Source: Escherichia phage vB-Eco-KMB25. Taken from it: 50,475 bases of DNA. Below, in pieces: positions 20,586 through 48,027 of the stretch (its first letter is position 1; each line of letters starts with the position of its first letter). The notes beneath the pieces are model-generated. The model made no database searches. It had not been told where the DNA came from and saw nothing but the letters and a program-made list of their open reading frames with translations. The translations under genes and the position numbers were made by a program. The stretch lies in sequence record OR424386.1. One strand, 5' to 3'.

Positions 20586-20640
20586 ACTATGCTACTAAAA
20601 TCCAATTGTTGCAAGTATTGTTTTTAGCAAAAAGTGCTAT
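20586..20640 (-). promoter_or_regulatory. promoter of the lipoprotein gene: TTGCAA-17-CATAGT with an upstream dyad box
   Basis: Minus-strand -35 at 20609-20614 and -10 at 20586-20591; box TAGCACTTTTTGCTAAAAAC at 20621-20640. Confidence 0.4.
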
Positions 20641-20723
20641 CTGTTGTTTTCTTTTGTTCCAAGGTGTTCACAACTTAATCCGGCGTAAAATTGAAAACGT
20701 CTTGATAACAAAAAGAACAAATG

Positions 20724-20808
20724 AAATATCTATATAATACATACACTTAGAGTTTAATTATTATTATATATATCTATTTGTATTCTTCTTGTTTCTATTG
20801 TTCTCTAC
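20724..20808. repeat. AT-rich repeat element, copy 1
   Basis: AAATATCTATATAATACAT ... TAATTATTATTATATAT ... CTTGTTTCT, shared with 41222-41294. Confidence 0.5.
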
Positions 20809-21006
20809 GGTTTGTGGTTGTTGTGTGTTTTGTATTGGTTGATGGTTATATATCACATGGTATGTATTTATATATGGTATGCGGCGTAAATGCGTGAACA
20901 ATGGAACACAAAAACAACAATCAGTAAAATCATAAACTTACGATGTGATTTTGTTGTCAATGCTAGTTGTAAACGCATGCAAAACAAAAAGAACACTTAA
21001 ATGGTA

Positions 21007-21034
21007 TTGACTACATGCAACAAAGACATATAAT
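21007..21034 (+). promoter_or_regulatory. sigma70-type promoter TTGACT-16-TATAAT
   Basis: Near-consensus hexamers about 30 nt upstream of the exonuclease gene RBS. Confidence 0.6.
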
Positions 21035-21062
21035 GCAGACATACCAACGAGAGGATGACAAA

Positions 21063-22118
21063 ATGAGCGATTTTAAAGTTTACACCTTTGACCAGTTAAC
21101 CAATGATGAATATCACGATCCTAAAGGTTGGGCGGCTGAATACGTTAGCGGTTCAAGCCTGGCGGAAATCTTTGCAACTTGTCCGGCTGCATGGAAATAC
21201 AGACCACGCGAGGAAAGCAAAGCGCTTGTTTTCGGTACGCAGTCACACACCAACTTTCAAAGCAGTGAGTTGTTCGCAAAAGAGTACCGCCGAGCGCCAG
21301 CGCCGGAAGATTACGAAAACTTGATCACAAGCCAAACGGCATTAGCCAGCAAGTTAAAATCTTTTGGCCTGACTGGTACAAGCGGTAAAACTTATCCAGA
21401 CCTGATAAAAATGATGGTTGATTGTGGGGAGGATCTTAATGTTCAGTGGCTGATTGAAATGATCGCAGAGAGCCAGGCGCGAGCGGATAACGTTGAATTG
21501 GTTCCGGCTAAAGATTACGACGCTTGCGTTACCATGCGCCGCGTACTTGAAAACATACCGGAACACAACGCTTGCATGAATAGCCCAACAGCACAACGCG
21601 AGCTATCAATTTTCGGATCTATTAAAGGCGTTAAAGTCAAAGTAAGGCTTGACCATGTTGATATTTGCAAGGATGTGCTTGCAACGGTGATTTCCGGCTA
21701 TGACGGTGAAGGGAATCCGGTTTATGAAACAACGCGATTTGATGAAGCTATTGTGATCACTGATTACAAAACAACGTCAAGCGCTAACCCAACGGAGTTT
21801 TCACGGCTGGCATTCAATCACGGATACTACTTGAAAATGGCATTGCAGCATGACCTATTCAAGAAAGCGTATCCAGAAGAAACGCGCCCCGTAGTAGTCA
21901 GATTGCTGGCGCAGGAAAAGAAAGAGCCTTATTTACCGATTGCATACCGCATGACGGATGAACAATTGAAGATCGGACGGCTTCAATACATGAGTGTGAT
22001 AAACCAGTTTGCAGAATGCCAGGCAAATGACAGTTGGCCTTCATACGCAAACGGAGAGCCTGAAATTGATCTTCAAACGCCTGATTGGGTACGCAGACAA
22101 TACAAAGGTTTTTTATAA
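21063..22118 (+). CDS. PD-(D/E)xK family exonuclease (recombination exonuclease candidate)
   Basis: ATG 21063 behind GAGAGGA; motifs RLDHVD ... ITDYKTT resemble the D..(D/E)xK nuclease core; lies upstream of the Erf-like and SSB genes. Confidence 0.5.
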   Translation: MSDFKVYTFDQLTNDEYHDPKGWAAEYVSGSSLAEIFATCPAAWKYRPREESKALVFGTQSHTNFQSSELFAKEYRRAPAPEDYENLITSQTALASKLKSFGLTGTSGKTYPDLIKMMVDCGEDLNVQWLIEMIAESQARADNVELVPAKDYDACVTMRRVLENIPEHNACMNSPTAQRELSIFGSIKGVKVKVRLDHVDICKDVLATVISGYDGEGNPVYETTRFDEAIVITDYKTTSSANPTEFSRLAFNHGYYLKMALQHDLFKKAYPEETRPVVVRLLAQEKKEPYLPIAYRMTDEQLKIGRLQYMSVINQFAECQANDSWPSYANGEPEIDLQTPDWVRRQYKGFL

Positions 22119-22119
22119 A

Positions 22120-22161
22120 TAGCACTTTTTGCTAAAACAGCCATTCGATGCGTGGTATACT
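22120..22161 (+). promoter_or_regulatory. dyad-box promoter (TAGCACTTTTTGCTAAAAC, 17 bp, TATACT)
   Basis: Member of the repeated box-spacer-hexamer architecture. Confidence 0.5.
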
Positions 22162-22193
22162 ACACGCATCAACCAACAAGAGAGGAAATAAAA

Positions 22194-22484
22194 ATGGAAA
22201 AGCAATTCAACGAGCGCGAAATCAAAGAAGTTCAGGATCACGTAGAAAAAGTAACTTCCGCAATCGCAGTTACGCAACGTGAATTTTTAAAGGTAATTGA
22301 TCCGAGTGAATCGCCTGAAACTATGGCATACGTTCGCAAGGTTGCACATGCATTTGATAATGTAATTCTCACAATATTTCAGCACGAAGATAATGAGCAA
22401 TATAAAAACATGTTGCACCAGGCCAGTGAGGTAATGATCCAGAATTTGATTGATTACCACAATAAAGGTAAAGAAACTCATTAA
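22194..22484 (+). CDS. hypothetical protein
   Basis: 96-aa ORF from ATG 22194 behind GAGAGGA. Confidence 0.3.
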   Translation: MEKQFNEREIKEVQDHVEKVTSAIAVTQREFLKVIDPSESPETMAYVRKVAHAFDNVILTIFQHEDNEQYKNMLHQASEVMIQNLIDYHNKGKETH

Positions 22485-22531
22485 TTAAATTGGCGGCGAA
22501 AGCCGCCTAACCTATCAGCGGAGTGAATTAG

Positions 22532-23194
22532 ATGAAATTTTCAGAACAAAACGCAAACGTGATTAAGGCATTGTTTGAGGCGCGTCAATTATTCACCAAA
22601 GTAAAAAAGGATAAGCAAAATACGCACCTTAAAAACAAATATGCAACGCTTGACAGTGTTCTTGATGCAATTATGCCTGGGCTTACTGATAAGGGTTTAT
22701 TCCTTACACAAGATCAGAAAGTCAGTGAAGATCTTAAATCAATGACTGTATTCACGCGATTCATTCATGTTGAATCAAACGAATGGGTAGAATATAGCTT
22801 CACGCTTCCAATGCAGAAATTAGATCCTCAAGGCGGCGGCTCAACAAATAGCTATGCTCGACGTTATGCGCTTTGTACTGCTTTAGGGTTGGCAACGGCT
22901 GACGATGACGCAAATCTTGCCACCAAAAACGCGCAGGATTGGAAAAAAGATCTTGATGCTTGCGATAACCTTACAGACTTGCAAGAAACGTTTAAAACTG
23001 CTTACAAGCAATCTGACGCAGCAAACCGCCGAATCATTAAAGAGCATTACGATAAGCTGAAAGCAAAAATGGAAATAGGAAAGGCTCGCGGCTTTAATCC
23101 GGCTGAACCAGCGGCGAATGTTGCAAAGAATGAAAAGGTTGAAAAGGAACCGCAACAGGAAGTAAAATCACAGTCTATCACTGACTTTGAATAA
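22532..23194 (+). CDS. single-strand annealing protein (Erf-like, putative)
   Basis: 220 aa between the exonuclease and SSB genes; assigned by synteny and general resemblance to Erf-type recombinases. Confidence 0.45.
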   Translation: MKFSEQNANVIKALFEARQLFTKVKKDKQNTHLKNKYATLDSVLDAIMPGLTDKGLFLTQDQKVSEDLKSMTVFTRFIHVESNEWVEYSFTLPMQKLDPQGGGSTNSYARRYALCTALGLATADDDANLATKNAQDWKKDLDACDNLTDLQETFKTAYKQSDAANRRIIKEHYDKLKAKMEIGKARGFNPAEPAANVAKNEKVEKEPQQEVKSQSITDFE

Positions 23195-23231
23195 TAATTT
23201 GCGGGGCGTAATGCCCCGATAAGGAAAAATA

Positions 23232-23657
23232 ATGCACGTTATCACTGGTGAAATTCGCAAAGAGCCTTATATTAAGCAGGGCGCAAGCGGAACTTTATAC
23301 ATCGTTGAATTAGCGGAATCGTATAAAGATCGTGAAGGTAATCGACAATATACGAATTACAAGTTTTTCTTTAATGCCAAAAGCGACGGCATGAATAATT
23401 GGTATCGCGATGCGTTCCAGATCGGTAAGGTTGTTTCAGTATCGTGCGATCAGTTACGCATTGATAGCAACGAATACAACGGACAAATTTATAACACGCT
23501 AACAAGTGCTGGATTTGCTAACCTGCAATTTAGCCAGCGCGGGGAAGGTCAAGCACCACAACAGCAACGACCGCCTCAGCAACATCGACCACAGCAACAG
23601 CAAGCGCCACAAAACAACGAGCCTCCAATGGATTTCGACGACGATATCCCATTCTGA
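23232..23657 (+). CDS. ssb: single-stranded DNA-binding protein
   Basis: Gln/Pro-rich linker followed by C-terminal MDFDDDIPF, the conserved acidic SSB tail. Confidence 0.85.
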   Translation: MHVITGEIRKEPYIKQGASGTLYIVELAESYKDREGNRQYTNYKFFFNAKSDGMNNWYRDAFQIGKVVSVSCDQLRIDSNEYNGQIYNTLTSAGFANLQFSQRGEGQAPQQQRPPQQHRPQQQQAPQNNEPPMDFDDDIPF

Positions 23658-23659
23658 TA

Positions 23660-23690
23660 AAATAAAACCCCGCAATGCGGGGTTTTTTAT
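23660..23690. terminator. bidirectional rho-independent terminator
   Basis: AACCCCGC-AAT-GCGGGGTT hairpin flanked by A- and T-runs between convergent ssb and tail fibre genes. Confidence 0.65.
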
Positions 23691-25834
23691 TACTTAGTAA
23701 GCTGAACAAGCATTGCTTGCATTTCCGCAATTGCGGCTTTCATTTCTGCGATCTCGTTTTTCAACTCTTTAATTTCCTCCTGTTGTTTCTCTATTTTTTC
23801 TTTCTGCTCTTTGAATGCGTTAACCAAAAGAGCTACAACGCCATTATAGTTAATGCCTTTGATTGCCTCGCCTTTTGGATCTATCTGACCATCATTATTC
23901 AAAGAATGAACCGCTTCCGGCAAAACCCTTTCAACATCTTGTGCGATCAATCCAGCCTCAATGCTATAAACGCTGTTTTCATCTTCAATTAGATTGTTGC
24001 GCTTGTAGTAAGTATAACCAGTTAGATAATCAATTTTGTCGGATGCTGTTTCGATCTCTTTTAGATGTGCTTTCATCCTTATGTCAGATGTGCTAATCCA
24101 TTGGTTACAAGTAGCATTTCCAACGTTATTGAAAATGAATTCTCCACCCTTTACATAAAGGTGAGTTTCAGCACCGCCACTCGACCAGTTAACGGCATCC
24201 ATTCCAGTAATCCAATCATCACCCCAATGAACAACCTTAAATACGTTAACGGCTGCGTCTTTTGCTGTAATCTCGCAAAGCATTCCAGCACCACGATCAC
24301 GCCAAGCAGTAAAAGCGCCTCCCTGAATTTGACCGCCAATCATGGCACTTGCCCCACCAGACCTAATGCCAGCAACCCTAATGCCGTTTGCATCGTCACT
24401 AATAGGCCATATAGTCAATAACCCGTACATGTTAAAATCATTAGCTTGGCATGTTGCAATATTTCTACCGTTGCACATTACTTGCAAAATGCCATCACCG
24501 CCCCACCTAAAACCTGTGTCAGTGTCACCAATTACTAACGCATTACTTCCAAGCGCATTACCAATACCCCTACCGATAACTATTGAATTGTAATTTATCG
24601 CGTTACCGCTTTCATCAAATTGATAATAGTTTGTATCACCTCCTTCCCTAGTGACTTGTATTGTTGATTTTGCTAATCCACCTTGAATTTCGTTGTAAAT
24701 TCTTGAGTATGAAAGCTGTACATCTTCTGGACTTTTGTTTATTAAATAAAGAACTCCAGAGTTTGCAGAGTTTTTTTCTGTTAGGCTTATTCCTCTAAAA
24801 ACAGGTATATCAGCCTCACCAATGCCAAAGTTATTCCTTGCTTGGCTTACGTTTTCCGCACCAGTACCGCCAGCACCAACAGAAAGAGCGGATGTGCTGT
24901 TATCGCTATTTCTTGCAACTCGCCACTCGCCGTTGTTTGCGATCCGTAATTCATAAGTCCATGCAGGGTTACGAAATGAGTTATAATCACCTGGATTTTG
25001 CCCCTTAACTGAATTAACAGCCTCAACTTTCAGCGCCTCCCTTGCTAAATCTTTATTAGCAAGATCATTAAGATTCTGATCCTTATGCAGAAGGTTTTCA
25101 GGGTTAACTTGTTGTGCCCATTGGCGAGCTTCATCACGCGCAGTCTCAGCGCCAGCCTTTGCAGAGTCGGCGGCAATCTTTGATTGTTCAGCGGCAAGTT
25201 GTGATTCCTTTGCTGCATCGCGAGCATTAACAGACTCGTTTTTAATTGATCCAATTTCAGAAACGGCGCTATCTTTTATTTGTTGCGTCTGCGTTTTTAT
25301 TGCGTCAGTGTCCGCCTTAATCTGATTGGTTTCATTGACGGCAGCATCCTTAATCTGTTGAGTCTCAGATACAGCAGAATCCTTAATATGTTGCGTTTCA
25401 TTTTTTAGTTGCTCAGTTGCCGCTTTGTCGTTTGCTACCTGTTGAGCATCAGCATTAACCTTGTTAACTAAATCTTGCAATGTTTTCAGATCGAAGTTTT
25501 TAAAGAATTCAATTGCTTCCTCAATTACCGTTTCTTTACTTTGGTAATAACGCAGCGTTTCCGCTACATCTTGCGCCATTCCATCGACAGTTAGCGAGTC
25601 ATTCAACAGGATCACATAATTTCCGTTTGCTACTTGCTCGCCGTCAGTCTGGATCGCTTTCATTTCCGTGTCGCTTACAATATCGCTAATCACAGCCAAT
25701 TTAAGAGGCGATGTGAGAAATACGATTGTTGCGCCAGTGCGGATAAGAGAAAGAGGCTCACGCCATTTTGTGCCAGTACCAGTAATAACGCCTTGCGCGT
25801 CCATTGCAGCCGTACCAGTTCGATATAAAGCCAT
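23690..25834 (-). CDS. tail fibre protein with C-terminal intramolecular chaperone (S74-like) domain
   Basis: 714 aa; C-terminal ...[19 protein letters not shown]... then coiled-coil [35 protein letters not shown], typical of auto-cleaving fibre chaperone domains; RBS GAGGTG. Confidence 0.7.
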
Positions 25835-25900
25835 AATTACACCTCATTTTATTCATTGAAACAGTGTAGTGATTATGCGATATTGCTATGTTACATGCAA

Positions 25901-25924
25901 TAAAAAACCCCGCCTTAGCGGGGT
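25901..25924 (-). terminator. rho-independent terminator (minus strand)
   Basis: CCCCGC-TAAG-GCGGGG hairpin followed by a T-run on the minus strand. Confidence 0.55.
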
Positions 25925-25989
25925 TCGTCAACGACAACGAGAAGCCAATGAAACAGATTCATCGAAAAGTGTTAGTAGCAGGATGAATA

Positions 25990-26916: not shown

Positions 26917-26948
26917 TTCTCAACCTCCAAATAAAAAAACCTGGCACG

Positions 26949-26991
26949 ATGATAAACCATGCCAGGCCGGAATTTTTAGCAATCAGTGCTA
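26949..26991 (-). promoter_or_regulatory. dyad-box promoter (TAGCACTGATTGCTAAAAA, 18 bp, TATCAT)
   Basis: Box overlaps the last codons of the upstream gene (..DSTDC stop). Confidence 0.45.
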
Positions 26992-27584
26992 TCGACGGAA
27001 ATCACAACGCGTTTCTTCTGATTGGCTTCCTTTGCTTTGCGCCGTTCTTCTTTCGCCTTGTCGCGTTCAGCTTTGCGCCGCGCTTTCTCCTTCTCGCGTT
27101 CTTCTGGAGTCATAGACCGTAACGGATCGTAAGGCCGAACAAATCCGCGCGCCTCCGCTTCTTCTTTTGTGACAAATCGCATGAGCTTTCTGTTGCTGCA
27201 ACGATTCTCTAATGGCTTGCCGTTGTTGTCAAAGCGCAAATCTGGACGGCAATATGAAGCGCGGAAACCGTTAAAACCTTTGCGGCGGTAATCCTTTTGG
27301 ATCAGTTCAGCGCCTTTAGCTGAAATCATTCCGCGCTCTTTCCATCCCCACACTGTTTTAAGGTTAACGCCAATCTCACGCGCCAACGCAGCACAGCCGC
27401 CATAAGCGCTAACCACTTCATCAAGCCTAGCTTTTAATCCTGCCCTTACTTCTTCCTTTAGTACCAGATAACCGCTAACAGGTGCGCGGCGCTTCCGGTC
27501 TTTACCACGCCTTACGCCGTTGTTACCATTGATTGTGCGTTTGTCGATTTCGCCCGTTGAGGCCGCAATTTTGATTCCGCCCAT
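26976..27584 (-). CDS. putative DNA-binding protein with Lys/Arg/Glu-rich C-terminus
   Basis: ATG 27584 behind AGGTGA; HTH-like segment AALAREIGVNLKTVWGW; protein ends DSTDC, encoded by the dyad box. Confidence 0.3.
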   Translation of the reverse strand: MGGIKIAASTGEIDKRTINGNNGVRRGKDRKRRAPVSGYLVLKEEVRAGLKARLDEVVSAYGGCAALAREIGVNLKTVWGWKERGMISAKGAELIQKDYRRKGFNGFRASYCRPDLRFDNNGKPLENRCSNRKLMRFVTKEEAEARGFVRPYDPLRSMTPEEREKEKARRKAERDKAKEERRKAKEANQKKRVVISVDSTDC

Positions 27585-27595
27585 ATTTTCACCTA

Positions 27596-27637
27596 TAGCA
27601 CTTTTTGCTAAAACTATTGAGTAAGTTTGTGTATGAT
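27596..27637 (+). promoter_or_regulatory. dyad-box promoter (TAGCACTTTTTGCTAAAAC, 17 bp, TATGAT)
   Basis: Upstream of the helicase gene. Confidence 0.5.
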
Positions 27638-27672
27638 ATGGTGCAAATGGCATTTAGTCAAAAGGATAAGTA

Positions 27673-29646: not shown

Positions 29647-29648
29647 AA

Positions 29649-30056
29649 ATGGTTACTGATAAAGGCGATTATCTGGAGTATTACGACAAATCAGATCCAG
29701 ATGACAGAAAAGAGGAAGCGCACCAGGTTGATTCTTATTCATGGTTAACATATGAGTTTCCAATGTGGCTTGTTTGGCACACTAAAAACGAAGGGAAGAA
29801 AACAATAGGCACAGCAGTAAAGGATCAGCAAGCAGGTGTAAAAAAAGGAGTAAGCGACATTCTAATCCTGACTGGTTTTATTGGCTGCAAATATGCATTC
29901 ATTGCAATTGAGCTTAAACGAGCCAACAAGAAAGGAACTAAAGTAAGCCAGGAACAAAGGGAATTCTTGCGCCGCGTTAGGGAATGCGGAGGATTTGCCG
30001 CAGTATGCTATGGTGTAGATCAAGTAAAATTGGCTATCGCAGACGCTACAAAATAG
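29649..30056 (+). CDS. VRR-NUC domain nuclease (putative)
   Basis: 135 aa; core ...DILILTGFIGCKYAFIAIELKR...VSQEQREF... resembles the VRR-NUC D-E-K fold. Confidence 0.5.
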   Translation: MVTDKGDYLEYYDKSDPDDRKEEAHQVDSYSWLTYEFPMWLVWHTKNEGKKTIGTAVKDQQAGVKKGVSDILILTGFIGCKYAFIAIELKRANKKGTKVSQEQREFLRRVRECGGFAAVCYGVDQVKLAIADATK

Positions 30057-30096
30057 CACTTTTTGTTAAAACAGGCGCGACGGAATGCGCCATAAT
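30054..30096 (+). promoter_or_regulatory. dyad-box promoter (TAGCACTTTTTGTTAAAAC, 18 bp, CATAAT)
   Basis: Box TAG is the stop codon of the upstream gene. Confidence 0.5.
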
Positions 30097-30127
30097 GCAC
30101 ACATCAGAACGAAACGGAGAATTAACC

Positions 30128-30406: not shown

Positions 30407-30407
30407 A

Positions 30408-31148: not shown

Positions 31149-31377
31149 AATGAGCATTCGATTAGCCGATCACATGAAATGGGATTTATTTGTCGGTATG
31201 ACAATTCGCTTACTTGATAAGCATGGTTATAACGATGATAAAATGGAGTTGATAAACTGCCTGGATATGACATTTGACGAAATCAAAGTTGCGCCTTTGT
31301 ACATGTGGGAAAGAAAAATTGAGCACGACCTGATACAATACAAACGCAGAGAGGGCGCACGATTTTTCAATGTGAAA

Positions 31378-31420
31378 TAGCACTTTTTGTTAAAACCCGC
31401 TACGGCGGGTTTTGTATTAT
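31378..31420 (+). promoter_or_regulatory. dyad-box promoter (TAGCACTTTTTGTTAAAAC, 18 bp, TATTAT)
   Basis: Spacer contains terminator-like hairpin CCCGC-TACG-GCGGG followed by TTTTG. Confidence 0.5.
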
Positions 31421-33039: not shown

Positions 33040-33055
33040 TTAAATTATCAAGAAA

Positions 33056-34526: not shown

Positions 34527-34569
34527 AATATACCCGATACAAGATCGGGTGTTTTAACAAAAAGTGCTA
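34527..34569 (-). promoter_or_regulatory. dyad-box promoter (TAGCACTTTTTGTTAAAAC, 18 bp, TATATT)
   Basis: Box TAG is the stop codon of the upstream gene. Confidence 0.5.
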
Positions 34570-34687
34570 TTCAAAGCGCCTGACGTGAATTAGTAGTTCA
34601 CCGTCATCATTTGTTAACTGGTGCTCATTATCTCCAAACGCTCGCATGTCACTGTAAAGCAATAGCAATAATGAGTAGACCAAATCA

Positions 34688-36663: not shown

Positions 36664-36690
36664 CTAAAAATCTCCTTCTTGTTGCCGCTA

Positions 36691-36733
36691 ATTATAACGG
36701 CAACATTCTACAGCCTTTTAGCAATTCGTGCTA
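36691..36733 (-). promoter_or_regulatory. dyad-box promoter (TAGCACGAATTGCTAAAAG, 18 bp, TATAAT)
   Basis: Perfect -10 hexamer lies in the loop of hairpin GTTGCCG/CGGCAAC. Confidence 0.5.
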
Positions 36734-36979
36734 TTTGATCGGCTCAACCCTGGCTAATAACCTTCCATCTATAATGCTATGACATTCAAGAGTTTTAGGA
36801 TCGAATGCAAGCGAACGATGGAACGTATGACCAATCAGCAAATATGAATGCTTATCCCTGATGCGATAGACCGTTTCACCTTCCTTTAATGACGATATCG
36901 CACTAAAAACAACCTTGTAACGATATTTTTGCATGGCCTCAGAACGGTGAGGCGTATAGTCTTTTTCTGGTAAACTCAT
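36731..36979 (-). CDS. hypothetical protein
   Basis: 82-aa ORF whose TAG stop is the first triplet of the downstream dyad box. Confidence 0.3.
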   Translation of the reverse strand: MSLPEKDYTPHRSEAMQKYRYKVVFSAISSLKEGETVYRIRDKHSYLLIGHTFHRSLAFDPKTLECHSIIDGRLLARVEPIK

Positions 36980-37338: not shown

Positions 37339-37370
37339 TTGATTTATCTCCTTTTGTTTTCGTTGAAATC

Positions 37371-37413
37371 ATTATGCCGGATACGTGATCCGGCGTTTTA
37401 ACAAAAAGTGCTA
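37371..37413 (-). promoter_or_regulatory. dyad-box promoter (TAGCACTTTTTGTTAAAAC, 18 bp, CATAAT)
   Basis: Spacer is hairpin GCCGGAT-CACGT-ATCCGGC. Confidence 0.5.
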
Positions 37414-38106
37414 TTTCTGATTTGCCAGGCATACAGCAAGCGCAAAGCCGCGCGGAGTGAGTGAGCGGATCAGCTTTGTTCGCTTAGACTTGCCGCCGAG
37501 CTTTTGCCAGCCTGGATTGTTGTTCCCTGTTGGCAATACTGCGTTTGTATCCGGCATTACAAAGCCGTTACCCGTCCAAAGACAAGTTTTTTTGGTGTAC
37601 GCATCGCGAGCGGGAATGATTTCAGGAAAGTGAGGATGTTTATCATCTTCCGGCAACAGACCTCCAAACGCGCAAGGATGAAAGATAAAATCAGGTTGCC
37701 GCCACATTGACGACAGAACACTAACAGGATTCTCAATCATATATGGAACGTTAAACCGATCCGCAATATTGGCAGCAATCTTTGCCGTTTCAACCGCCTT
37801 TTTCTGGAAGTCTGGATCACGTTCACGCTTTGCTGCAAAGTGACGCGATCCGCTAACAGCTAAATCAGTGCATGGAGGGAATGCAATAATAAAATCTGGA
37901 GTGCCAAAGACGCGCATCATTGCGTTATGCTGGAATGATAATCCGATCCACTCATTCAAATAAACGATGTTGGGATGAGTCACGCGCACTGATTGGTAAT
38001 CACCATGATCAGCACCGTCGAAATTAAAGCACAGCACTTTGTGACCACGTTCAGCCCACGGCAACGCAGCATAACCAGAACCATCAAATAGTGAGAAAAT
38101 AAGCAT
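37411..38106 (-). CDS. putative SAM-dependent DNA methyltransferase (C5-cytosine-like motifs)
   Basis: 231 aa from ATG 38106 behind AAAGGA; motif I-like LFDGSGY, PC-containing FPPCTD, ENV-like MIENPVSV. Confidence 0.4.
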   Translation of the reverse strand: MLIFSLFDGSGYAALPWAERGHKVLCFNFDGADHGDYQSVRVTHPNIVYLNEWIGLSFQHNAMMRVFGTPDFIIAFPPCTDLAVSGSRHFAAKRERDPDFQKKAVETAKIAANIADRFNVPYMIENPVSVLSSMWRQPDFIFHPCAFGGLLPEDDKHPHFPEIIPARDAYTKKTCLWTGNGFVMPDTNAVLPTGNNNPGWQKLGGKSKRTKLIRSLTPRGFALAVCLANQK

Positions 38107-38783: not shown

Positions 38784-38826
38784 ATGATACCAATCAGAGC
38801 GTTATCGTTTTTAGCAATTCGTGCTA
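38784..38826 (-). promoter_or_regulatory. dyad-box promoter (TAGCACGAATTGCTAAAAAC, 17 bp, TATCAT)
   Basis: Box encodes the C-terminal NSTNC of a 51-aa upstream ORF (38822-38978). Confidence 0.45.
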
Positions 38827-38974
38827 TTTACGGCGATAAACGGATATCCTGTTAAATCTGCATTTCTATAACGTGCAGACCTAACCCAACAGCCGCCTTT
38901 GCTCATAATTAAAGCGTTTTTATGGCGAATGTTCACGCGGCAAATTCTTCCGGTTTTTATGTTTTTGAAGTAGG

Positions 38975-39521: not shown

Positions 39522-39564
39522 ATTATGCCAAAACAAACCGGATCGCTTTTAACAAAAAGTGCTA
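39522..39564 (-). promoter_or_regulatory. dyad-box promoter (TAGCACTTTTTGTTAAAAG, 18 bp, CATAAT)
   Basis: Upstream of gene 39208-39489. Confidence 0.5.
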
Positions 39565-40340
39565 TTTAATTAAAATACGAATACCTTTTCGCACGCTTTC
39601 CGTCGCCTCCGTAATGGTCATTAGCAACAGCAAGAATCCAAGCGTTAGGAATAAAAAATAGCTTCATTAATCACTCTCCATGACAATTACAGGCTCCAGG
39701 CGCTCAAGCACCACTTTGAAATCGGAGTAAAAAGTAGGGCGACGTTTTGTTAATTCCTCATATGTATCAGTTGCCAGGCAAGCGCGATCACCTTCATAGC
39801 ACACAACTCGCTTACCATTGGCGCGGCTTATTGCAACGACGCGATAAGTATTATTGATCATTTCATCACCTCAATTGAATAAATACTTTCAACGCCTGGC
39901 GCGTATAACCGATCTCCATCTTCAGTTATGCAAAGACAAAGTGCAAGGCCGCGATTGTCTGAAATATGCAAGTCATTTTGTCTATCCATCAAAATTTCAT
40001 ATTCGCGATCTTCATCAAAGCGCCAAACGCTTAACATGCACTTTCCAGATGATTTAACTTTTACTTTCTTTCCGGCGAAATTTAAACGACTCATTGCGCC
40101 ACCTCCACAGTTTCAAATACGGTATTGAATGCCAGAAGTTTAAATTTCTTGCCAGGCTCAACAACCTGAATATTCCAGGTAATGCCGCCGTGATATGCAA
40201 CCATATCATCAATATCGACGGTGATTTGTGCGCCCTTCTTGAATAAACCTTTTTCATGGCTCGCATCGCGTACAGTAACCACAGTTTCGAATTGAGTTTG
40301 AATTTCCATCGTTAATCTCCTGATTGGTTTCGATGGGGTA

Positions 40341-40383
40341 ACTATATCAAGATACCCCGATCCGGTTTTAACAAAAAATGCTA
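40341..40383 (-). promoter_or_regulatory. dyad-box promoter (TAGCATTTTTTGTTAAAAC, 18 bp, TATAGT)
   Basis: -10 lies in the loop of hairpin GGGGTA/TACCCC. Confidence 0.5.
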
Positions 40384-40384
40384 T

Positions 40385-40819: not shown

Positions 40820-40850
40820 CGTGAATTCCTCAGTTCGTTTCGATGAAGCA

Positions 40851-40893
40851 ATCATAGCAATTCGCGTCTGATTGGTTTTAACAAAAAGTGCTA
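40851..40893 (-). promoter_or_regulatory. dyad-box promoter (TAGCACTTTTTGTTAAAAC, 18 bp, TATGAT)
   Basis: Outermost promoter of the minus-strand cluster, at the edge of the AT-rich region. Confidence 0.5.
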
Positions 40894-40902
40894 TTCATGC
40901 GA

Positions 40903-40932
40903 TAGACCGATTGGTCTAGACCGTTTGGTCTA
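40903..40932. repeat. two tandem inverted repeats TAGACC-N4-GGTCTA (operator-like)
   Basis: TAGACCGATTGGTCTA and TAGACCGTTTGGTCTA overlap by 2 bp. Confidence 0.5.
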
Positions 40933-41221
40933 ATGAACGCATCGTTTTGTGTATCGAACGCATTCATGATCCTGTTACGTGATCGTTATATGATCAGATG
41001 ATGATTGATGTGTGAGATTTTGTGATTGAAATTGATTTGATTTGATTAGATTTGAGTAGTGAGAGAGTAGAAATAATCACACCTTGCCGATCAGTGAAAA
41101 CTTTTCCCGCAAAACATCACTCCATGCTCCGCGCGTTTCGTTTTGTTCCTCGTTGTTTTCCGCCAGACCTTCCGCAGTTTAGCGCAACGTTACACAACAC
41201 GTATAACAACAAAATATCTAT

Positions 41222-41294
41222 ATAATACATTGAAAAGTAAGATAATTATTATTATATATCTATATTGTTATATAACTTGTTTTGCTTGTTTCTC
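41222..41294. repeat. AT-rich repeat element, copy 2
   Basis: Shares the 19-nt core AAATATCTATATAATACAT and the TAATTATTATTATATAT block with 20724-20808. Confidence 0.5.
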
Positions 41295-41482
41295 ATGATA
41301 TTGATACCCCTTTACTGATTGATAGAGTATAAAATTATAAGATAGGTGCTCTTATTTATTATAGGTGGCGGTGATTTTTAGCGAAATGGTGTAACGATTT
41401 AGAACATCGTTGATTTGAAAGGATAAATTTTCAATTACTGTTACATTGCGTGATGTTTTTGTTGTCTAATCAAAAATAACAC

Positions 41483-41510
41483 TTGACGCATAAGCCAGGC
41501 TTGCTAAGAT
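41483..41510 (+). promoter_or_regulatory. sigma70-type early promoter TTGACG-16-TAAGAT
   Basis: Upstream A-rich tract; about 35 nt before the GGAGG RBS of the first early gene. Confidence 0.55.
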
Positions 41511-41544
41511 TTCTGCATCTAGCAACAACGGAGGATAACCAATC

Positions 41545-41832: not shown

Positions 41833-41843
41833 AGAGGTGAATC

Positions 41844-42287
41844 ATGGAACAAATGACAAGTAAAGAGTTTTGCGAAAAATTGCGTGAAGCCGCAAGAGCC
41901 GCTGCAACAGGTGAAGTGATCAAGTTGCCAGTTGCCTACATAACAATGAACGTCCAGGCAGAGGACGCAAAGAAACTAAATTCATCATACATCCGCACGA
42001 TCATGAATCGCGTACCTGAAGTAAAAGAGGTTGGATCTGTAAGTGTCAAGAAAAAGACAAGTGATGACGGAGCGGAATATTACGAAATAGCAATTAACCG
42101 CGACACAAAACGCCGCATCGTGACAACCAATGACCTTCCGGCAATCAAAGAGCATGAGCGCGAAAAGCTGGTTGAAAAGATTATGCGCATATCGCCGGAC
42201 TTCTCACACCTGGACGATGAAAAGGCACTGGTTGCAATGCGAGCGGTTGCCACGTTCAAAGAACTGATTAAGGAGATCGCGAAGTGA
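41844..42287 (+). CDS. hypothetical early protein
   Basis: 147-aa ORF with RBS AGAGGTG. Confidence 0.3.
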   Translation: MEQMTSKEFCEKLREAARAAATGEVIKLPVAYITMNVQAEDAKKLNSSYIRTIMNRVPEVKEVGSVSVKKKTSDDGAEYYEIAINRDTKRRIVTTNDLPAIKEHEREKLVEKIMRISPDFSHLDDEKALVAMRAVATFKELIKEIAK

Positions 42288-42510
42288 AAGCATTCGCCTT
42301 TGTCGCTGCAATGTGGTGTGTTGTTATTGATAGTCCTGGCGTGGCGCTGGTTGTGTTAGGTCTGATTTTGTTGGGGGTGTTTGATGAATAAGAAACTTTT
42401 AGATCATGCCGTGGTGTTCTTTATCGCTGCTGCTGGATTTTCGCTGTTGTCAATTGCTTTTTCAATCCTTGCTTTTGCCGTGTCAATGCTGAAATGACGG
42501 ATTACATCCT

Positions 42511-42553
42511 GATTGGCAAATAGCACTTTTTGTTAAAACTCGATTGGGGTAGT
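42511..42553 (+). promoter_or_regulatory. dyad-box promoter (TAGCACTTTTTGTTAAAAC, 18 bp, CATAAT)
   Basis: -10 in the loop of hairpin TGGGGTA/TACCCCA; followed by TCGAAACGAAACGAGG leader. Confidence 0.5.
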
Positions 42554-43355
42554 TTGGCATAATTACCCCATCGAAACGAAACGAGGAAAACACAATGACT
42601 ACCTTAATCACCTGGGAACACGAAACAAGCCAGCCAGTAACCCGCGAGTTTGAAACTCTTAGCCAGGCTTATCTTTTGGCTGCTAACGGTGGTTATTACA
42701 AGGCTCAAGTTGTTGATGAAATGGGAGTGATCGTTTATGAATTCCATGCATAATTTCCGCAGCTACACGCAGGAAGTGGATTTTGAGGGGATCAAGTTAC
42801 CACTTCCTAACATATACCGCTATATCACTCGTGATGAATACGGATTTATAAACGCCTGGCGAGATAAGCCCAAAAAGGTTGGCAATGAATACGGCGACGG
42901 CTCAGAGATGCCGATCACGTTAGGTCATCAAACTGGCGAGAATGTAGCGGCTGTAATGCGCAAATATCGCCGCAGCCTCACAAACTCATTAATTTCTATC
43001 TTTGGCATACAGGAGTAATAAAAATGTTTGAACTGAAACGCGTAACTGTTGAGATCCTGAATGATGGCTCTTACGATGGAATGAAACACTTAACATTCCC
43101 GATCCGCATTGAGAATTGCATTGATTACGGTATTGAAGTTGGAATGGTTGACGTTCCGCTTGATGCCCTGGTAGCGGCTGGCTATGACAAAGAGAAAGGC
43201 CAATGCGCCGATATACCGGATAGCTATGAAAGCGACACACATTTCCCGTTCACCTATGGCGAATGCAGGATTGTTGATTGAGGTTATAAAGTGAGCAGTT
43301 GGCATAATGAACACGTAATGCAATTCTACCGCTACAGAATAAAGAAAATGCTAAA

Positions 43356-43398
43356 TAGCACGAATTGCTAAAACTAAATCAGGGGCATTTGTTATAGT
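43356..43398 (+). promoter_or_regulatory. dyad-box promoter (TAGCACGAATTGCTAAAAC, 18 bp, TGtTATAGT)
   Basis: Extended -10-like TGnTATAGT in the loop of hairpin AGGGGCA/TGCCCCT. Confidence 0.5.
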
Positions 43399-43432
43399 GC
43401 CCCTCGTTGAGTTAAGCAAAGGAGAATCAACA

Positions 43433-43987
43433 ATGTTAAGCATCGAAAAAATCAACTTCCCGATCACATTTAAAAATTGCGCTAACGGTAAAAATATTAC
43501 ATATCACAGTGAATACAGCAACGGCGTTTGGAGTAGCGGCGAGAAAAGCAGTCTTTCATTGCAATATTTCATTAAGCTGCATAATGAGCATAACCAAAGC
43601 AATAGTAATGTGTTGAGGTACTATTACGAAATGGCAGAAAAACGCGAGGATAACGATCTGTTATATGCGATGAAATATTTAAATATCAGGCCTGGCCATG
43701 TCAATTTAAACGGTGCTGTGTTTACTGAGTCAGTAGGTGCTAAAGATTACGATTACATTTGCAAGGTTGAAAATATGCCAGTTGGCGCAACGCTTTTAGG
43801 TGTTCAGCGTGAAAATGGCGAATGGGACGAGTTGAAATTTAAACCGCGCCGCATTGAAGTACATGACGATGTTATTTGCTTGCTTTCCGGTTATTCTGGT
43901 GGCTACAAGAGCGGCAATAATTACGGCGCTGAAATCAACATTAAGATCGGCACTAACGTAAAAATCAAAAACAGCACGAATTGCTAA
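43433..43987 (+). CDS. hypothetical early protein ending in NSTNC
   Basis: 184 aa from ATG 43433 behind AGGAG; last five codons are supplied by the next dyad box. Confidence 0.3.
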   Translation: MLSIEKINFPITFKNCANGKNITYHSEYSNGVWSSGEKSSLSLQYFIKLHNEHNQSNSNVLRYYYEMAEKREDNDLLYAMKYLNIRPGHVNLNGAVFTESVGAKDYDYICKVENMPVGATLLGVQRENGEWDELKFKPRRIEVHDDVICLLSGYSGGYKSGNNYGAEINIKIGTNVKIKNSTNC

Positions 43988-44014
43988 AACAGAATTTTGA
44001 GCTTGCTGTATAGT
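43972..44014 (+). promoter_or_regulatory. dyad-box promoter (CAGCACGAATTGCTAAAAC, 18 bp, TATAGT)
   Basis: Box embedded in the 3' end of the upstream CDS. Confidence 0.45.
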
Positions 44015-44361
44015 AAGCTCATACCAAACAACGAAAGGATCAAAAAATGGAATTAGCACGTAACGCGGTTTATGGCTTACACCTTAATAAAGGCGGCAAA
44101 GGCTCAAGTTATGCACACCTTTTTCATGTTAACGAGCGCGGTCAAATTGATATTGCAATGTATGTTGACAAACTGGTTAAAGGTTGTGAGTCCAGCAAGT
44201 TCAGACCCGATCTGATTGAATACGATCACACACACAGTCACGACCACTGGTTAGGTGGTTATAAATTTACAATGCTTGATAGCCATGTTATTGACACAAG
44301 AAAATTAACGAATCGTGACTATAGGCGCATGGCTCGAAAAATCCTGAAGCAGAAAGCGCAA

Positions 44362-44404
44362 TAGCACGAAATGTTAAGCGGTCATGTGTGCTGATTGGTA
44401 CAAT
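44362..44404 (+). promoter_or_regulatory. dyad-box promoter, degenerate box (TAGCACGAAATGTTAAGCG, 18 bp, TACAAT)
   Basis: Downstream leader GCATCAACCAACAAGAGAGGA is nearly identical to that at 22164-22184. Confidence 0.4.
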
Positions 44405-44547
44405 GACCGCATCAACCAACAAGAGAGGATAGAAAAATGTCAAAAGAATCAATTAAGCAGTTTCTGAAATACGGCTCTATGATTGTGCTCGCTACCGTTG
44501 TGCTGGCTGGCATCGCTTACAGTGTCATCGAATTTGTGGGGTAATGG

Positions 44548-45111
44548 ATGTTTAAGATCGAATTGTGGGGGAAGGAATACGCTAATCACTACGTTGCAAC
44601 AAAACAGCGTTTCGTTATTTTTGACCTGGACGGCACGTTATCAAATGGGGCGCATCGCTTGCACCTGTTGCCAACTGTTGACTTGCATCTTACTGAAAGC
44701 TGGAGTGAGTTTAACCGCGCCTCAAAGGATGATTCACCGTTCAGCAATAACATTTCCGTGTGCAATGCTATGTTTGATGCCGGATACCTGGTTATCATCC
44801 TAACGGGTCGGAGTGATGAAGTTGAGGCAGAAACGCGAGCATGGTTAGCTGAAAACGGCGTTTCTTTCGATTGGCTGATTATGCGCCGAGCGGAGGACAA
44901 CCGGAAAGATACCGTGATCAAAGAGGAAGTTTTACGGACTATCGGGCTTGATCGCATTGTCGCATGTTGGGATGACTCGCCAAACGTTATTGCACACTTG
45001 CGCGGCCTGGGCTTGACGGTTTACCAGGTTATTGACTACGGAGACCAGTTGCACGATCACATAAAATCTCACGGCGTGGAGGAATTGAGCGATGACAGCA
45101 AAGCTAATTGA
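44548..45111 (+). CDS. HAD-superfamily phosphatase (polynucleotide 3'-phosphatase-like)
   Basis: Motif I FDLDGTL, later LTGRSD and WDDSP motifs typical of HAD phosphatases. Confidence 0.55.
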   Translation: MFKIELWGKEYANHYVATKQRFVIFDLDGTLSNGAHRLHLLPTVDLHLTESWSEFNRASKDDSPFSNNISVCNAMFDAGYLVIILTGRSDEVEAETRAWLAENGVSFDWLIMRRAEDNRKDTVIKEEVLRTIGLDRIVACWDDSPNVIAHLRGLGLTVYQVIDYGDQLHDHIKSHGVEELSDDSKAN

Positions 45112-45477
45112 AGATCGGCATGGTGATAACGTGCTTATTTACATCGAAGGGAAATCGGTGTTGATTGACTGCAAATATGAGGATGACACACATTTGCAGT
45201 TTCGCGGAATCTTTGACAAGAAAGGCGCATTGGAGTTAGCGGAACACATCAAGCGTCTTGCGGAAGAATTACCGGAATAGAGGATTTATTATGTTGACTT
45301 TTATCTTGATCGCTATCGTTTTAATTCTGTATGTTTGCGGCGCTTTCCTGATGCGAGCGCTACTAAAAGAGGCTGACGCTGATGATAAGGATAGTTGGAA
45401 GCCGATTATTTTATGGCCTGGCTATATCATCGTGCCAATTTACGAACTAATCCGCGATGGTGAGTTTAAATGGTAAA

Positions 45478-45520
45478 TAGCACTTTTTGCTAAAACTTGC
45501 TAAGGCACATTTGATAAAGT
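45478..45520 (+). promoter_or_regulatory. dyad-box promoter (TAGCACTTTTTGCTAAAAC, 18 bp, TGaTAAAGT)
   Basis: -10 in the loop of hairpin AGGCACA/TGTGCCT. Confidence 0.5.
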
Positions 45521-46024
45521 GTGCCTTGTCGAGACAAGCAAGGAGAATGACACATGAAAGTTTTTATGATTAAACAGTTTGGACGCACTGCATATTATAT
45601 CATCAACGACGAGGGAGATATTTTCATTTCGAACTATCCTACTCTTGAAGTAGGTCGTCATTTCAGAAGTTCAGTTGACGAAAAGGGAGTTATCAATATG
45701 GTTGAGTGTGGAATGATGGTTCCCTTCAATAAAGAAGCGGCTGAATTATTCCAGCAATCACAGATCCGAAAACGCAACCGCAATATTATTTGCTTCACAA
45801 TTGCAATGGTTGTAACTGTTGGCTCAATCTTACTTGGAGTGTGGTCGTGATGAATACTGATAATAAAGTTGAAACACAAAAGACGATCAACTATCTGCGA
45901 GCGCTTGCTGATGCTCTTGAGTCCGGCGAGGCAGCATTAAATGATGTTAGTATTGAGTCAAGAAATCACGGATGGACTCAGATCGAAGAAACATTAACCG
46001 TTCAATATTTTAAGGTGAATAAAG

Positions 46025-46600
46025 ATGGCTAAAATTATAATCCTCAATGCGCCTCCTGGTGCTGGTAAAGACACGATAGGCAAGATGATTTCTGTCTATT
46101 CGCCTGGTAAGCAATGCCGAATCATTAGCTTTAAAGAGCCAATGTTTGATATTGCATTAGCTATCCTGGGCAAAGAGAACTATAAGCGTTTCATGCTGGC
46201 TTACGATGACAGAGAGCAGAAAGAAAGGCCGCAAACATTCCTGATGGGTATGTCACCGCGCGAGTTCATGATCTGGATTAGCGAGGATGTGATCAAGCCT
46301 AAATTCGGTAAGGATTATTTCGGCGTAAGGTTTAATCAGAAAGTAAAAGAGTGTGATGCTCCTGTTGTTTGCACTGATGGCGGTTTTCCAGATGAAATTA
46401 TAGCGCTAATCAATGCTGGTAATGAGGTGAAGTTATGCCGCTTGCACCGCGACGGGTTCACGTTTGCAGGTGATAGCCGCAACTACATTCGAATAAATCC
46501 ATACTACCAGAAAAACGGATATAGCGAGCACGATTATAAATTGGTTGATAAACAACCAAATGTAACGGTAAAGGAAATCATTCGCGATCACCTTAAATAG
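46025..46600 (+). CDS. P-loop kinase (polynucleotide or nucleotide kinase-like)
   Basis: N-terminal Walker A LNAPPGAGKDT; 191 aa; 0.9 kb downstream of the HAD phosphatase. Confidence 0.5.
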   Translation: MAKIIILNAPPGAGKDTIGKMISVYSPGKQCRIISFKEPMFDIALAILGKENYKRFMLAYDDREQKERPQTFLMGMSPREFMIWISEDVIKPKFGKDYFGVRFNQKVKECDAPVVCTDGGFPDEIIALINAGNEVKLCRLHRDGFTFAGDSRNYIRINPYYQKNGYSEHDYKLVDKQPNVTVKEIIRDHLK

Positions 46601-46640
46601 CACGAATTGCTAAAACTTGCGCAAGGCCATTTGTTATAGT
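46598..46640 (+). promoter_or_regulatory. dyad-box promoter (TAGCACGAATTGCTAAAAC, 18 bp, TGtTATAGT)
   Basis: Box TAG is the kinase stop codon; -10 in the loop of hairpin AAGGCCA/TGGCCTT. Confidence 0.5.
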
Positions 46641-47474
46641 GGCCTTATTCAAGAGAAGCAACCAATCAGAGGAATAAACGATGAAAATCAAATGCACCAA
46701 ATCAAACACAATGAATCTGACAGTTGGCGCGATTTACCATATGGAAGAAGGTGTAAACGGGTTTAGCCCAACTGTTACGCATGAGTACGGCGGTCACTTC
46801 TTCTTAAACGGTAAAGACGGATTATCTGTAAATGTTGGCTCTTTCGTTCTGGCAGAATTTGAGATCGTGGAGGAATAAAAATGTTCTGGATTCATTCGCC
46901 GCAAGGTTTGCTTTATGTGCCTGGCGTTGAATTTGAAGAACGACGCGACGGCGACACGGTAAACATCATAACTAAGGATTCAAAAGGCCACACTCTTAAA
47001 ACGTATGTTTTAAACACTCCGGTTAAGGTCGAAAAAGATGATTAAATTTATTGGTTTTGTGGCATTGCTTGTGTGCGGCATATGGCTTACTGACAATGAC
47101 ACTTGGCAAAGTGCTGTTGGAGGATTACTTATTTTTCTTGCTGGTGGCATGGTTGGCAGTGATGACGCAACAAATAAGAACAAACTTTCGGATCATTTAC
47201 GCAGAGAGACAAAACGATGAATAGAAAAATGCTGGTACGCGCCTTTGCTAAGATTGCTAAAAGGTGGGGAGACTCTAACAAATCGCCTTACACGTTTAGC
47301 CGCTACGGTTATAAAAATGCTCGCGACTGGGGTCGCTGCATTGCGGATAACTACAACTCCGAAATTCTGGAAGATTTCGCAAAGTGGATTGATACGCCTT
47401 TGAAGGATTGGTGTCAATTTGACTATGACTATTTCGCAGAAGAAGAAATTTCTTGTTTGTAAGGAGAATAAAAT

Positions 47475-47987
47475 ATGAAAGCTAAAAATGATTTTTATAA
47501 CTACCTGACAAAAGGCCGCGACTATACCGTTTTGAATAGCATAGATACTCTTTACCTGGTTGTTGCTGATAATGGCGTTAGAGTTTGGCTTGATAAAACT
47601 CTTTTCGAAAGCGAGCACCTAAGCAATGCAAAGCGGATCGCAGATGAAGCAAGTGCATTAGCAGAGCGTGAAAGAATTCGCGATATCGTTGCGGAGCAGG
47701 TGAGAAATTCATGTTCGCCTGGTGGCGATATCTTCAAATCAATGCGCGGTGAAATGACTGTTGGAATTCAAGATCGCGTAATTGCAAAATCAGTTGATTC
47801 TGTAATTGAGAATGCGAAATTCAATGCGTTGATTAACTCAGAGCCTAACGAATACGTCAAAGTGTTAGAGCAACTGCGTGAAGTGCTGAGAGTGCCGGAA
47901 GGTGAGAATATAGTGACTCATGCAAAGGTTGTAAGGACGTTGGCTGATGCTTTGCTTGACGTTTACCCAGGAATGAAGTGCAAATAG
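47475..47987 (+). CDS. hypothetical early protein
   Basis: 170-aa ORF whose TAG stop begins the next dyad box. Confidence 0.3.
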   Translation: MKAKNDFYNYLTKGRDYTVLNSIDTLYLVVADNGVRVWLDKTLFESEHLSNAKRIADEASALAERERIRDIVAEQVRNSCSPGGDIFKSMRGEMTVGIQDRVIAKSVDSVIENAKFNALINSEPNEYVKVLEQLREVLRVPEGENIVTHAKVVRTLADALLDVYPGMKCK

Positions 47988-48027
47988 CACTTTTTGTTAA
48001 AACTTCCGCGAGGGCATTTGTTAAAGT
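47985..48027 (+). promoter_or_regulatory. dyad-box promoter (TAGCACTTTTTGTTAAAAC, 18 bp, TGtTAAAGT)
   Basis: Same architecture; first gene downstream encodes the acidic 67-aa protein. Confidence 0.5.

Follow-up and report, generated by a model that had tools for sequence, protein, structure and literature searches.

The window analyzed here is the whole 50,475-nucleotide stretch of Escherichia phage vB-Eco-KMB25 held in record OR424386.1. A megablast search matched it to Citrobacter phage Stevie with 99.7% identity over 93% of the query, placing it among the T1-like phages (Drexlerviridae, Tempevirinae, Tlsvirus), a virulent family that carries no lysogenic repressor. A first-pass annotation, made from the sequence alone, had pointed to about 20 promoters between 20586 and 48027 that share a 19-bp box, a fixed distance to a -10 hexamer and no -35, and had proposed that they form an activator-dependent, probably middle-gene regulon. 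These box elements are listed below in a 20-bp form, termed marbox after the binding site of the host activators MarA, SoxS and Rob, which they closely resemble. Each line gives the coordinates, the strand, the spacer and the -10 hexamer, together with the TGn of an extended -10 where one is noted.

22119-22161, plus strand: promoter ahead of the cluster of the 22194 gene, Erf and SSB; marbox ATAGCACTTTTTGCTAAAAC, 17 bp, TGgTATACT; hairpin at 22147-22170 (-14.2 kcal/mol)
27595-27637, plus strand: helicase promoter; marbox, 17 bp, TATGAT; its -10 and that of a Cro-like gene's divergent canonical promoter overlap
30053-30096, plus strand: promoter ahead of a methyltransferase cluster; marbox, 18 bp, CATAAT; hairpin in the spacer
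31377-31420, plus strand: box promoter; marbox, 18 bp, TTGTATTAT; the spacer holds a terminator-like hairpin and a T-run, and the Stevie record has a terminator annotated at this site
42520-42563, plus strand: first box promoter of the rightward small-gene region; marbox, 18 bp, TGgCATAAT; a hairpin of -18.7 kcal/mol encloses the -10
43355-43398, plus strand: box promoter; marbox (GAAT type), 18 bp, TGtTATAGT
43971-44014, plus strand: box promoter; marbox ACAGCACGAATTGCTAAAAC, 18 bp, TATAGT
44361-44404, plus strand: box promoter; marbox ATAGCACGAAATGTTAAGCG, 18 bp, TGgTACAAT
45477-45520, plus strand: box promoter; marbox, 18 bp, TGaTAAAGT
46597-46640, plus strand: box promoter; marbox (GAAT type), 18 bp, TGtTATAGT
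47984-48027, plus strand: box promoter; marbox, 18 bp, TGtTAAAGT
40851-40894, minus strand: first box promoter of the leftward gene block from 40.9 to 34.7 kb; marbox, 18 bp, TGcTATGAT
40341-40384, minus strand: box promoter; marbox ATAGCATTTTTTGTTAAAAC (12/14), 18 bp, TGaTATAGT
39522-39565, minus strand: box promoter; marbox, 18 bp, TGgCATAAT
38784-38827, minus strand: box promoter; marbox (GAAT type), 18 bp, TGgTATCAT
37371-37414, minus strand: box promoter; marbox, 18 bp, CATAAT; hairpin entirely within the spacer
36691-36734, minus strand: promoter of a gene for a 526-amino-acid helicase; marbox (GAAT type), 18 bp, TATAAT
34527-34570, minus strand: box promoter; marbox, 18 bp, TATATT; terminator-like hairpin in the spacer
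26949-26992, minus strand: primase promoter; marbox, 18 bp, TATCAT; a full intrinsic terminator (26938-26968), followed by a T run, contains the -10 within its loop
20586-20640, minus strand: forward marbox 6 bp upstream of a canonical promoter, TTGCAA-17-CATAGT
6298-6317, minus strand: orphan marbox without a good -10; antisense, between the open reading frames (ORFs) 5769-6272 and 6347-7336, and adjoining a hairpin
16200-16219, plus strand: orphan marbox of the AAA type, immediately next to the start codon of the gene for a 1152-amino-acid tail protein; no -10 at class II distance

The box pattern is real and occurs far above chance. The spacer first written into it, N5 in TAGCAC-N5-TGYTAAAAC, was wrong, as this form has no match in the window and the 19-mers quoted with it contain N4; with N4 we found 27 matches at three or fewer mismatches, compared to 3.5 expected in shuffled sequences (largest 9). 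The coordinates given for the copies were likewise accurate, apart from one placed at 42511 that properly starts at 42521. All 20 promoter copies are directed at the downstream gene. The -10 hexamer lies exactly 18 bp past the 19-mer in 17 copies and 17 bp past it in two (22120 and 27596), TGn stands ahead of the hexamer in 12 of 19, and the region at -35 reads AAAACn, leaving the promoters without a -35 as had been claimed. When the window was scored for the 20-mer marbox, 22 sites matched at least 13 of the 14 specified positions, against 1.43 in 100 dinucleotide shuffles, and 18 of the window's sites had a -10 at 17-19 bp, against 0.11 in the shuffles, so that the combination of box and spacing, too, is in large excess over shuffled sequence. 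The predicted start site, 7 nt past the hexamer, is in most cases the A of a CA, and the leader from there to the start codon measures 21-34 nt, mostly 25-28 (17 of the 19 copies with a start codon found). The first ~15 nt past the predicted start (e.g., 42570-42585) have an A-rich motif in common, ATCGAAACGAAAC or ATCAACCAACAA, with GGAG after it and the start codon at ~25-28 nt, indicating that a whole cassette of ~90 bp is conserved and not the box alone.

Two further points of the first-pass annotation held in part. Promoter-type copies are indeed absent from the structural operon, but the two copies without a proper -10, at 6298-6317 and 16200-16219, do lie there; and a middle-gene regulon is too narrow a description, since boxes stand at the head of small early-type gene clusters as well. 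The copy ending at 20639/20640 does precede a conventional promoter, and its marbox is centered at about -51.5, displaced upstream from the class II position by one helical turn and lying on the same face of the DNA. As for the orphans, the ORFs flanking 6298-6317 correspond by position to the T1 decoration and major capsid genes, and T1 has a counterpart of this box at the same place (T1 locus ~15067-15086, minus strand). The T1 record carries an 'RpoD-independent promoter' annotation at the orphan-box site near 15086, and a similar box is found in the phage A136 record at 3031 (minus strand). A marbox-like copy also lies against the small terminase start codon of T1 (8362-8381, plus strand), as 16200-16219 does at the tail gene; these start-codon copies of late genes are of the AAA/TAAA spacer type, overlap the ribosome-binding site and have no class II -10.

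The same architecture recurs across the family. Scans of related genomes found the same box, spacing and -10 in T1, a Webervirus, a Braunvirinae member, a Hanrivervirus, a Jhansiroadvirus, Vc1 and Motto, and the box architecture in many IMG/VR contigs of ~50 kb. In a first pool of 344 unique box instances the best -10 lay at exactly +18 in 233. A second pool, comprising 312 promoters of several subfamilies, was then examined; it was selected on the consensus positions, so that only the unselected positions (3, 8, 9, 11, 12, 20, the flanks and -14) give unbiased frequencies. The A before the box was present in 96%, followed by T (89%) and A (98%), the GCAC element (G 100%, C 100%, A 100%, C 95%), three variable A/T-rich positions, T (97%), T (94%), G (98%), C or T (61 and 36%), T (95%), and at the 3' end A (98%), A (100%), A (99%), A (78%) and C (65%). 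G occurred at -14 in 86%, the -10 consensus was TATAAT-like with A2 and T6, and CA stood at the inferred start.

These frequencies bear on the proposal that the box is a dyad bound by a dimer, which called for symmetric half-sites. The G at position 3 of the 19-mer is invariant (100%), whereas its dyad partner is C in 61% and T in 36%, and the fixed flanks, A at -1 and AAA at +15 to +17, have no dyad relation at all. The pattern is instead that of an asymmetric marbox, a site read by monomers. The marbox/soxbox consensus, stated in two papers, is AYNGCACNNWNNRYYAAAYN (AYnGCACnnWnnRYYAAAYn), with an A site, GCAC, and a B site, CAAA or YAAA; it is degenerate, non-palindromic and orientation-specific, and one molecule of MarA, SoxS or Rob binds it through two helix-turn-helix motifs. 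With its conserved 5' A, the phage box reads ATAGCAC-N5-GYTAAAAC and agrees with this consensus at 13 of the 14 specified positions, with 21 window sites scoring 13/14 and one, at 40384, 12/14; all match the form derived from chromatin immunoprecipitation, gcannwwntgnnaaa, at 15 of 15. In E. coli MG1655, the mar marbox (ATGCCACGTTTTGCTAAATC) is identical to the phage box at 16 of 20 positions and the micF marbox (ACAGCACTGAATGTCAAAAC) at 15 of 20, the latter sharing the A at position 19.

The position of the box fits as well. Class II promoters within the mar/sox/rob regulon have a forward marbox overlapping the -35, with sites near -41 (micF, -41.5), no recognizable -35 and a normal -10. In MG1655, the micF marbox is followed by exactly 18 bp, by TAGAAT and then by 7 nt up to the first base annotated for MicF; at sodA, TATAAT lies 18 bp past a forward marbox-like site; and at fumC, AATAAT lies 17 bp past a 14/14 marbox. 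The phage boxes are centered at -40.5 to -41.5 relative to start sites predicted from the -10 and the CA motif, bearing out the earlier suggestion that the box occupies the position of a class II activator, without a -35 and at a fixed distance from the -10. The statement that no described promoter class has this architecture did not hold up, as it is that of a described class II mar/sox/rob promoter, with the spacing of micF, sodA and fumC. Sequence analysis thus supports promoter elements with a fixed box-to-(-10) spacing and an activator-dependent class II architecture.

The repeat as such had been described before, and what is new here is its recognition as a probable near-consensus class II marbox. 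The Stevie record bears 22-bp 'repeat_region' annotations exactly at the box positions of the first-pass annotation. The Stevie announcement (2015) described VWATAGCAYKWWTTGYTAAAAV as an asymmetric repeat of 16 copies that follow the direction of transcription, gave its role as unknown and mentioned a comparable repeat in T1 with 20 copies. The TLS re-annotation (2024) reported aaATAGCACnnnTTGnTAAAA in 18 intergenic copies ~76 nt before start codons; stoperator, enhancer or UP-element functions have been offered as guesses in published notes, and the function of the repeat was listed as an open question. Neither a fixed spacing to a -10 nor a known transcription-factor site is mentioned in the available parts of the Stevie and TLS papers. 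Our literature search found no paper linking marboxes to T1-like phages, nor any transcription start-site data for Drexlerviridae; in the literature searched, the marbox identification is unreported.

Most box promoters also carry a hairpin. In 14 of the 20 window promoters a strong hairpin lies between box and start site (e.g., 42540-42574, 43377-43408 and 26938-26968), and 75% of the 312 pooled promoters fold at -8 kcal/mol or below, compared to 14% of shuffles and 18% of random 40-mers. Stem sequences differ between copies, and two layouts were seen, with the stem either in the spacer, abutting a T-rich -10, or with its arms flanking or overlapping the -10; some hairpins of the spacer type are annotated as terminators in Stevie. 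The sense strand was the more stable in 209 cases and the antisense strand in 99, indicating G-U pairs and hence RNA structure in read-through transcripts. The same bias disfavors a DNA cruciform that presents the -10. The hairpins are probably terminator or 3'-end structures joined to the promoter that follows, forming insulated cassettes.

We propose, with a probability of about 0.65, that these elements are class II promoters of the MarA/SoxS/Rob(/RamA) type, as judged from sequence. The 20-bp asymmetric forward marbox would cover about -50 to -31 and be followed by an 18-bp spacer and an often extended -10, with no -35. One molecule of a MarA-family activator from the host would contact GCAC and YAAA, the two half-elements, as a monomer, take the place of the contact between sigma-70 region 4 and the -35, and hold RNA polymerase through the C-terminal domain of its alpha subunit (alpha-CTD) and sigma region 4. 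About 20 such promoters would drive nearly all non-structural transcription units of the phage. The hairpin would fold in read-through RNA coming from the upstream unit, while the unit's own transcript, starting inside or after the 3' arm, would escape it. We infer where transcription starts, that MarA, SoxS or Rob occupy the sites and are needed in vivo, which paralogue is at work and what the hairpin does.

The elimination of other readers and the closeness of the site match make host MarA-family activators the leading candidates for reading the box. A phmmer search with MarA of all six-frame ORFs gave nothing significant (best E-value 0.34), and Pfam scans of 20 non-structural ORFs found no AraC-type helix-turn-helix domain. 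Rob is made constitutively, in thousands of copies, and MarA and SoxS are made on induction. Enterobacterales, to which the named hosts in 824 records with the Cro-like gene introduced below overwhelmingly belong, carry MarA-family activators, and RamA occurs as well in Klebsiella, Salmonella, Citrobacter and Enterobacter; the candidates would be Rob, MarA and SoxS for E. coli, with RamA in addition in the latter four genera.

Several observations weigh against this proposal. At consensus position 19, which is Y, 78% of the 312 phage boxes have A, and three positions that the consensus leaves as N (3, 11 and 12) are nearly invariant, which could reflect optimal binding or a second protein reading the site. 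Without inducer Rob is reported to be largely sequestered in inactive aggregates, and MarA and SoxS are scarce in unstressed cells, yet T1-like phages grow well in ordinary laboratory culture; the model therefore needs a small active pool to suffice, or basal activity from the extended -10, or release of the activator driven by the phage. Finally, the same boxes occur in phages deposited for Vibrio cholerae (Vc1) and Pseudomonas aeruginosa (Motto). Vibrio phage Vc1, Pseudomonas phage Motto and 'Campylobacter phage' A136 (UNVERIFIED) are T1-like genomes with the same marbox promoters under non-enterobacterial host labels. Either such labels are unreliable or those hosts supply a factor that reads the same box; 20 'Campylobacter' records fall in the same family, one of them marked UNVERIFIED, showing that host labels can be doubtful.

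A phage-encoded reader of the box would be an alternative to a host activator, and two genes were considered in particular:

26976-27584, minus strand: Cro-like protein with a single helix-turn-helix (Stevie gp29); a family-wide gene with homologues in 824 phage records
41844-42287, plus strand: DUF7174 protein, expressed from a canonical promoter

On this account one of these proteins, or an unrecognized small protein, would read the pseudo-dyad TAGCA-N5-TGYTA as a class II activator or a later shut-off repressor, and the likeness to a marbox would be mimicry or coincidence. Half of the box copies do contain a perfect 5+5 inverted repeat, and the extra invariant positions 3, 11 and 12, as well as the non-enteric host labels, would fit a phage factor. 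The Cro-like gene, moreover, is found in the same phage family as the box and, in six genomes, combines a box-less canonical promoter with a box in its own leader, an arrangement that looks like autoregulation. Its product, which the first-pass annotation had named as a candidate, was modeled as a single Cro-like helix-turn-helix (predicted local distance difference test score, pLDDT, 82), with the Cro proteins of Xfaso-1 and N15 as best fold matches. However, most positions of its predicted recognition helix (residues 75-84) vary in a cross-subfamily alignment while the box is invariant in the same phages, which argues against this protein as the reader and leaves it a poor candidate. The DUF7174 model (pLDDT 86) comprises a winged-helix-like domain and a C-terminal helical hairpin, with weak PadR/LmrR-like fold matches in the PDB; the protein may be an early DNA-binding protein. 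It was rejected as the box binder, being undetected in Webervirus mtp9 and in the 40 kb examined of Vc1, both of which bear boxes, and its putative recognition motif is not conserved. Conservation of the box is also asymmetric and marbox-like rather than that of a dyad, and a chance match to a consensus of ~22 bits (our own count), in the right orientation and at exactly the micF/sodA spacing, is improbable. Taken together, we consider a phage-encoded reader unlikely.

Still less likely are extended -10 promoters that work without an activator, with the box acting as a decoy that captures MarA, SoxS or Rob and blunts the stress response, as a UP-like enhancer or as a stoperator roadblock. TGn can make a -35 dispensable and is present in the 12 copies mentioned, stoperator, enhancer and UP-element roles are those proposed in published notes, and the orphan boxes at 6298-6317 and 16200-16219 have no -10. 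Yet TGn is absent from 7 of the 19 copies, and several hexamers are weak (TAAAGT, CATAAT). A decoy or roadblock needs no fixed 18-bp register, which 233 of the 344 pooled boxes nonetheless keep, and a virulent phage family lacks the lysogenic repressor. An UP element, an A/T-rich alpha-CTD site at -40 to -60, was ruled out, as the box has invariant G/C positions (GCAC and G13) that misfit alpha-CTD recognition, and reaches -31.

Another host factor with a similar site, such as Lrp (consensus yAGhAwATTwTdCTr), is very improbable: the 15-bp core fits the consensus published from systematic evolution of ligands by exponential enrichment at 13 of 15 positions in the TTTT type or 11 of 15 in the GAAT type, in which the A/T core is mismatched, but the conserved 5' A, the 3' AAAC, the C/T of the right half-site and the orientation dependence are left unexplained, and a marbox fits better on every count. 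Other promoter classes were rejected on geometry. Compared to a sigma-54 promoter (TGGCAC-N5-TTGCW, with GG and GC 10 bp apart), the box (TAGCAC-N3-TTGC) is 2 bp too short and has AG in place of GG, and a conserved sigma-70 -10 lies 18 bp beyond it. TTGYTA as a -35 would leave a spacer of 22 bp to the -10, and a T4 MotA box fails on position, the TGCTA core of the phage box ending 22 bp before the -10.

Canonical promoters are, by contrast with the boxes, scarce. Between 20000 and 50475 canonical -35/-10 matches fell below the shuffled numbers (28 vs 35.3, and 23 vs 36.5). This scarcity agrees with the TLS re-annotation (2024), in which just three sigma-70-like promoters were detected. From the sequence, canonical sigma-70 promoters appear to serve few units, namely the genes for the exonuclease and the Cro-like protein, and the DUF7174 unit. 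One of them belongs to a divergent control region:

27633-27661, minus strand: canonical sigma-70 promoter of the Cro-like gene, TTGACT-17-TATCAT

In this region (27585-27672) the Cro-like and helicase promoters diverge and share an overlapping, nearly palindromic -10 region, and a reverse-complemented marbox lies in the leader of the Cro-like gene, between its start site and ATG; the divergent arrangement is kept in six genomes of different subfamilies. Given the overlapping -10s and the marbox in the Cro-like leader, whatever binds the box should favor the helicase promoter over that of the Cro-like gene. A second region, 40895-41544, is a 650-bp A/T-rich non-coding stretch between two divergent gene blocks, with short repeats of the GATTT type, an imperfect 35-nt inverted repeat (41193-41284) and promoter-like sites with TG at 41301-41328 and 41483-41510; it may be an origin, an immediate-early control region or both. 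Just upstream of the 40894 box, at 40903-40931, lie two tandem 14-bp units, TAGACCGATTGGTC and TAGACCGTTTGGTC, each with the palindrome AGACC-N4-GGTCT. A search for an operator shared by the canonical promoters returned this palindrome pair and nothing elsewhere in the window. The palindromes may be an operator for a phage helix-turn-helix protein.

A wider reading, which we offer tentatively and hold at somewhat less than even odds, is that Drexlerviridae have wired almost their whole non-structural program to the host MarA/SoxS/Rob/RamA regulon through ~20 near-consensus marboxes, each with an upstream terminator-like hairpin as an insulated cassette. If so, phage development would respond to host signals, among them bile salts, salicylate, oxidants and some antibiotics, and expression of phage genes would be stronger in multidrug-resistant mutants whose MarA, RamA or SoxS is constitutive; in the case of TLS, such mutants would also make more TolC, the TLS receptor. 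A virulent phage family would then depend, for a class of promoters spread over its genome, on a family of host stress activators and not on a factor of its own, and phage susceptibility would be tied to the mar/sox/rob/ram regulon behind clinical multidrug resistance, with a bearing on the choice of Drexlerviridae for therapy and on combining phages with antibiotics or inducers. The elements would, in addition, constitute a set of compact, insulated and inducible promoter cassettes. What the repeat does in T1-like phages has explicitly stood as an open question ever since the T1 genome was published, and its identification as a class II marbox would make that question directly testable by simple experiments.

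Several known systems resemble this one in part. T4 middle promoters carry a MotA box centered at -30, ~12 bp (11-13) from the -10, and depend on sigma appropriation by AsiA. They are similar in being a phage-wide class in which a conserved box with a TGCT core replaces the -35; no MotA or AsiA homologue was found in Pfam among the 20 ORFs tested. At lambda PRM, with CI at OR2, and at galP1, with CRP, an activator near -42 replaces or assists the -35 contact, and an extended -10 is common. Those activators are dimers on symmetric sites, whereas the phage box is asymmetric and orientation-dependent. The stoperators of mycobacteriophage L5 are likewise short, asymmetric repeats that follow the direction of transcription and occupy short intergenic spaces, but they have no fixed -10 register and need a lysogenic repressor, whereas the window phage is virulent and its register fixed. 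The 21/22-bp repeats published for T1-like phages (T1 2004, Stevie 2015, TLS 2024) are the same element, with the same counts and orientation rule as the window boxes; added here are the fixed register to the -10 and the proposed marbox identity, the function having been left open in the available parts of those reports. The closest counterparts are the class II MarA/SoxS/Rob(/RamA) promoters of the host (micF, sodA, fumC and lpxC P2), with the same asymmetric 20-bp site, orientation, position and 17-18 bp to the -10. In comparison with them, the phage sites number ~20 per 50 kb, belong to a virulent phage, lie far nearer to the consensus and to one another, have extra fixed positions (3, 11 and 12) and in most cases are joined to a hairpin or terminator.

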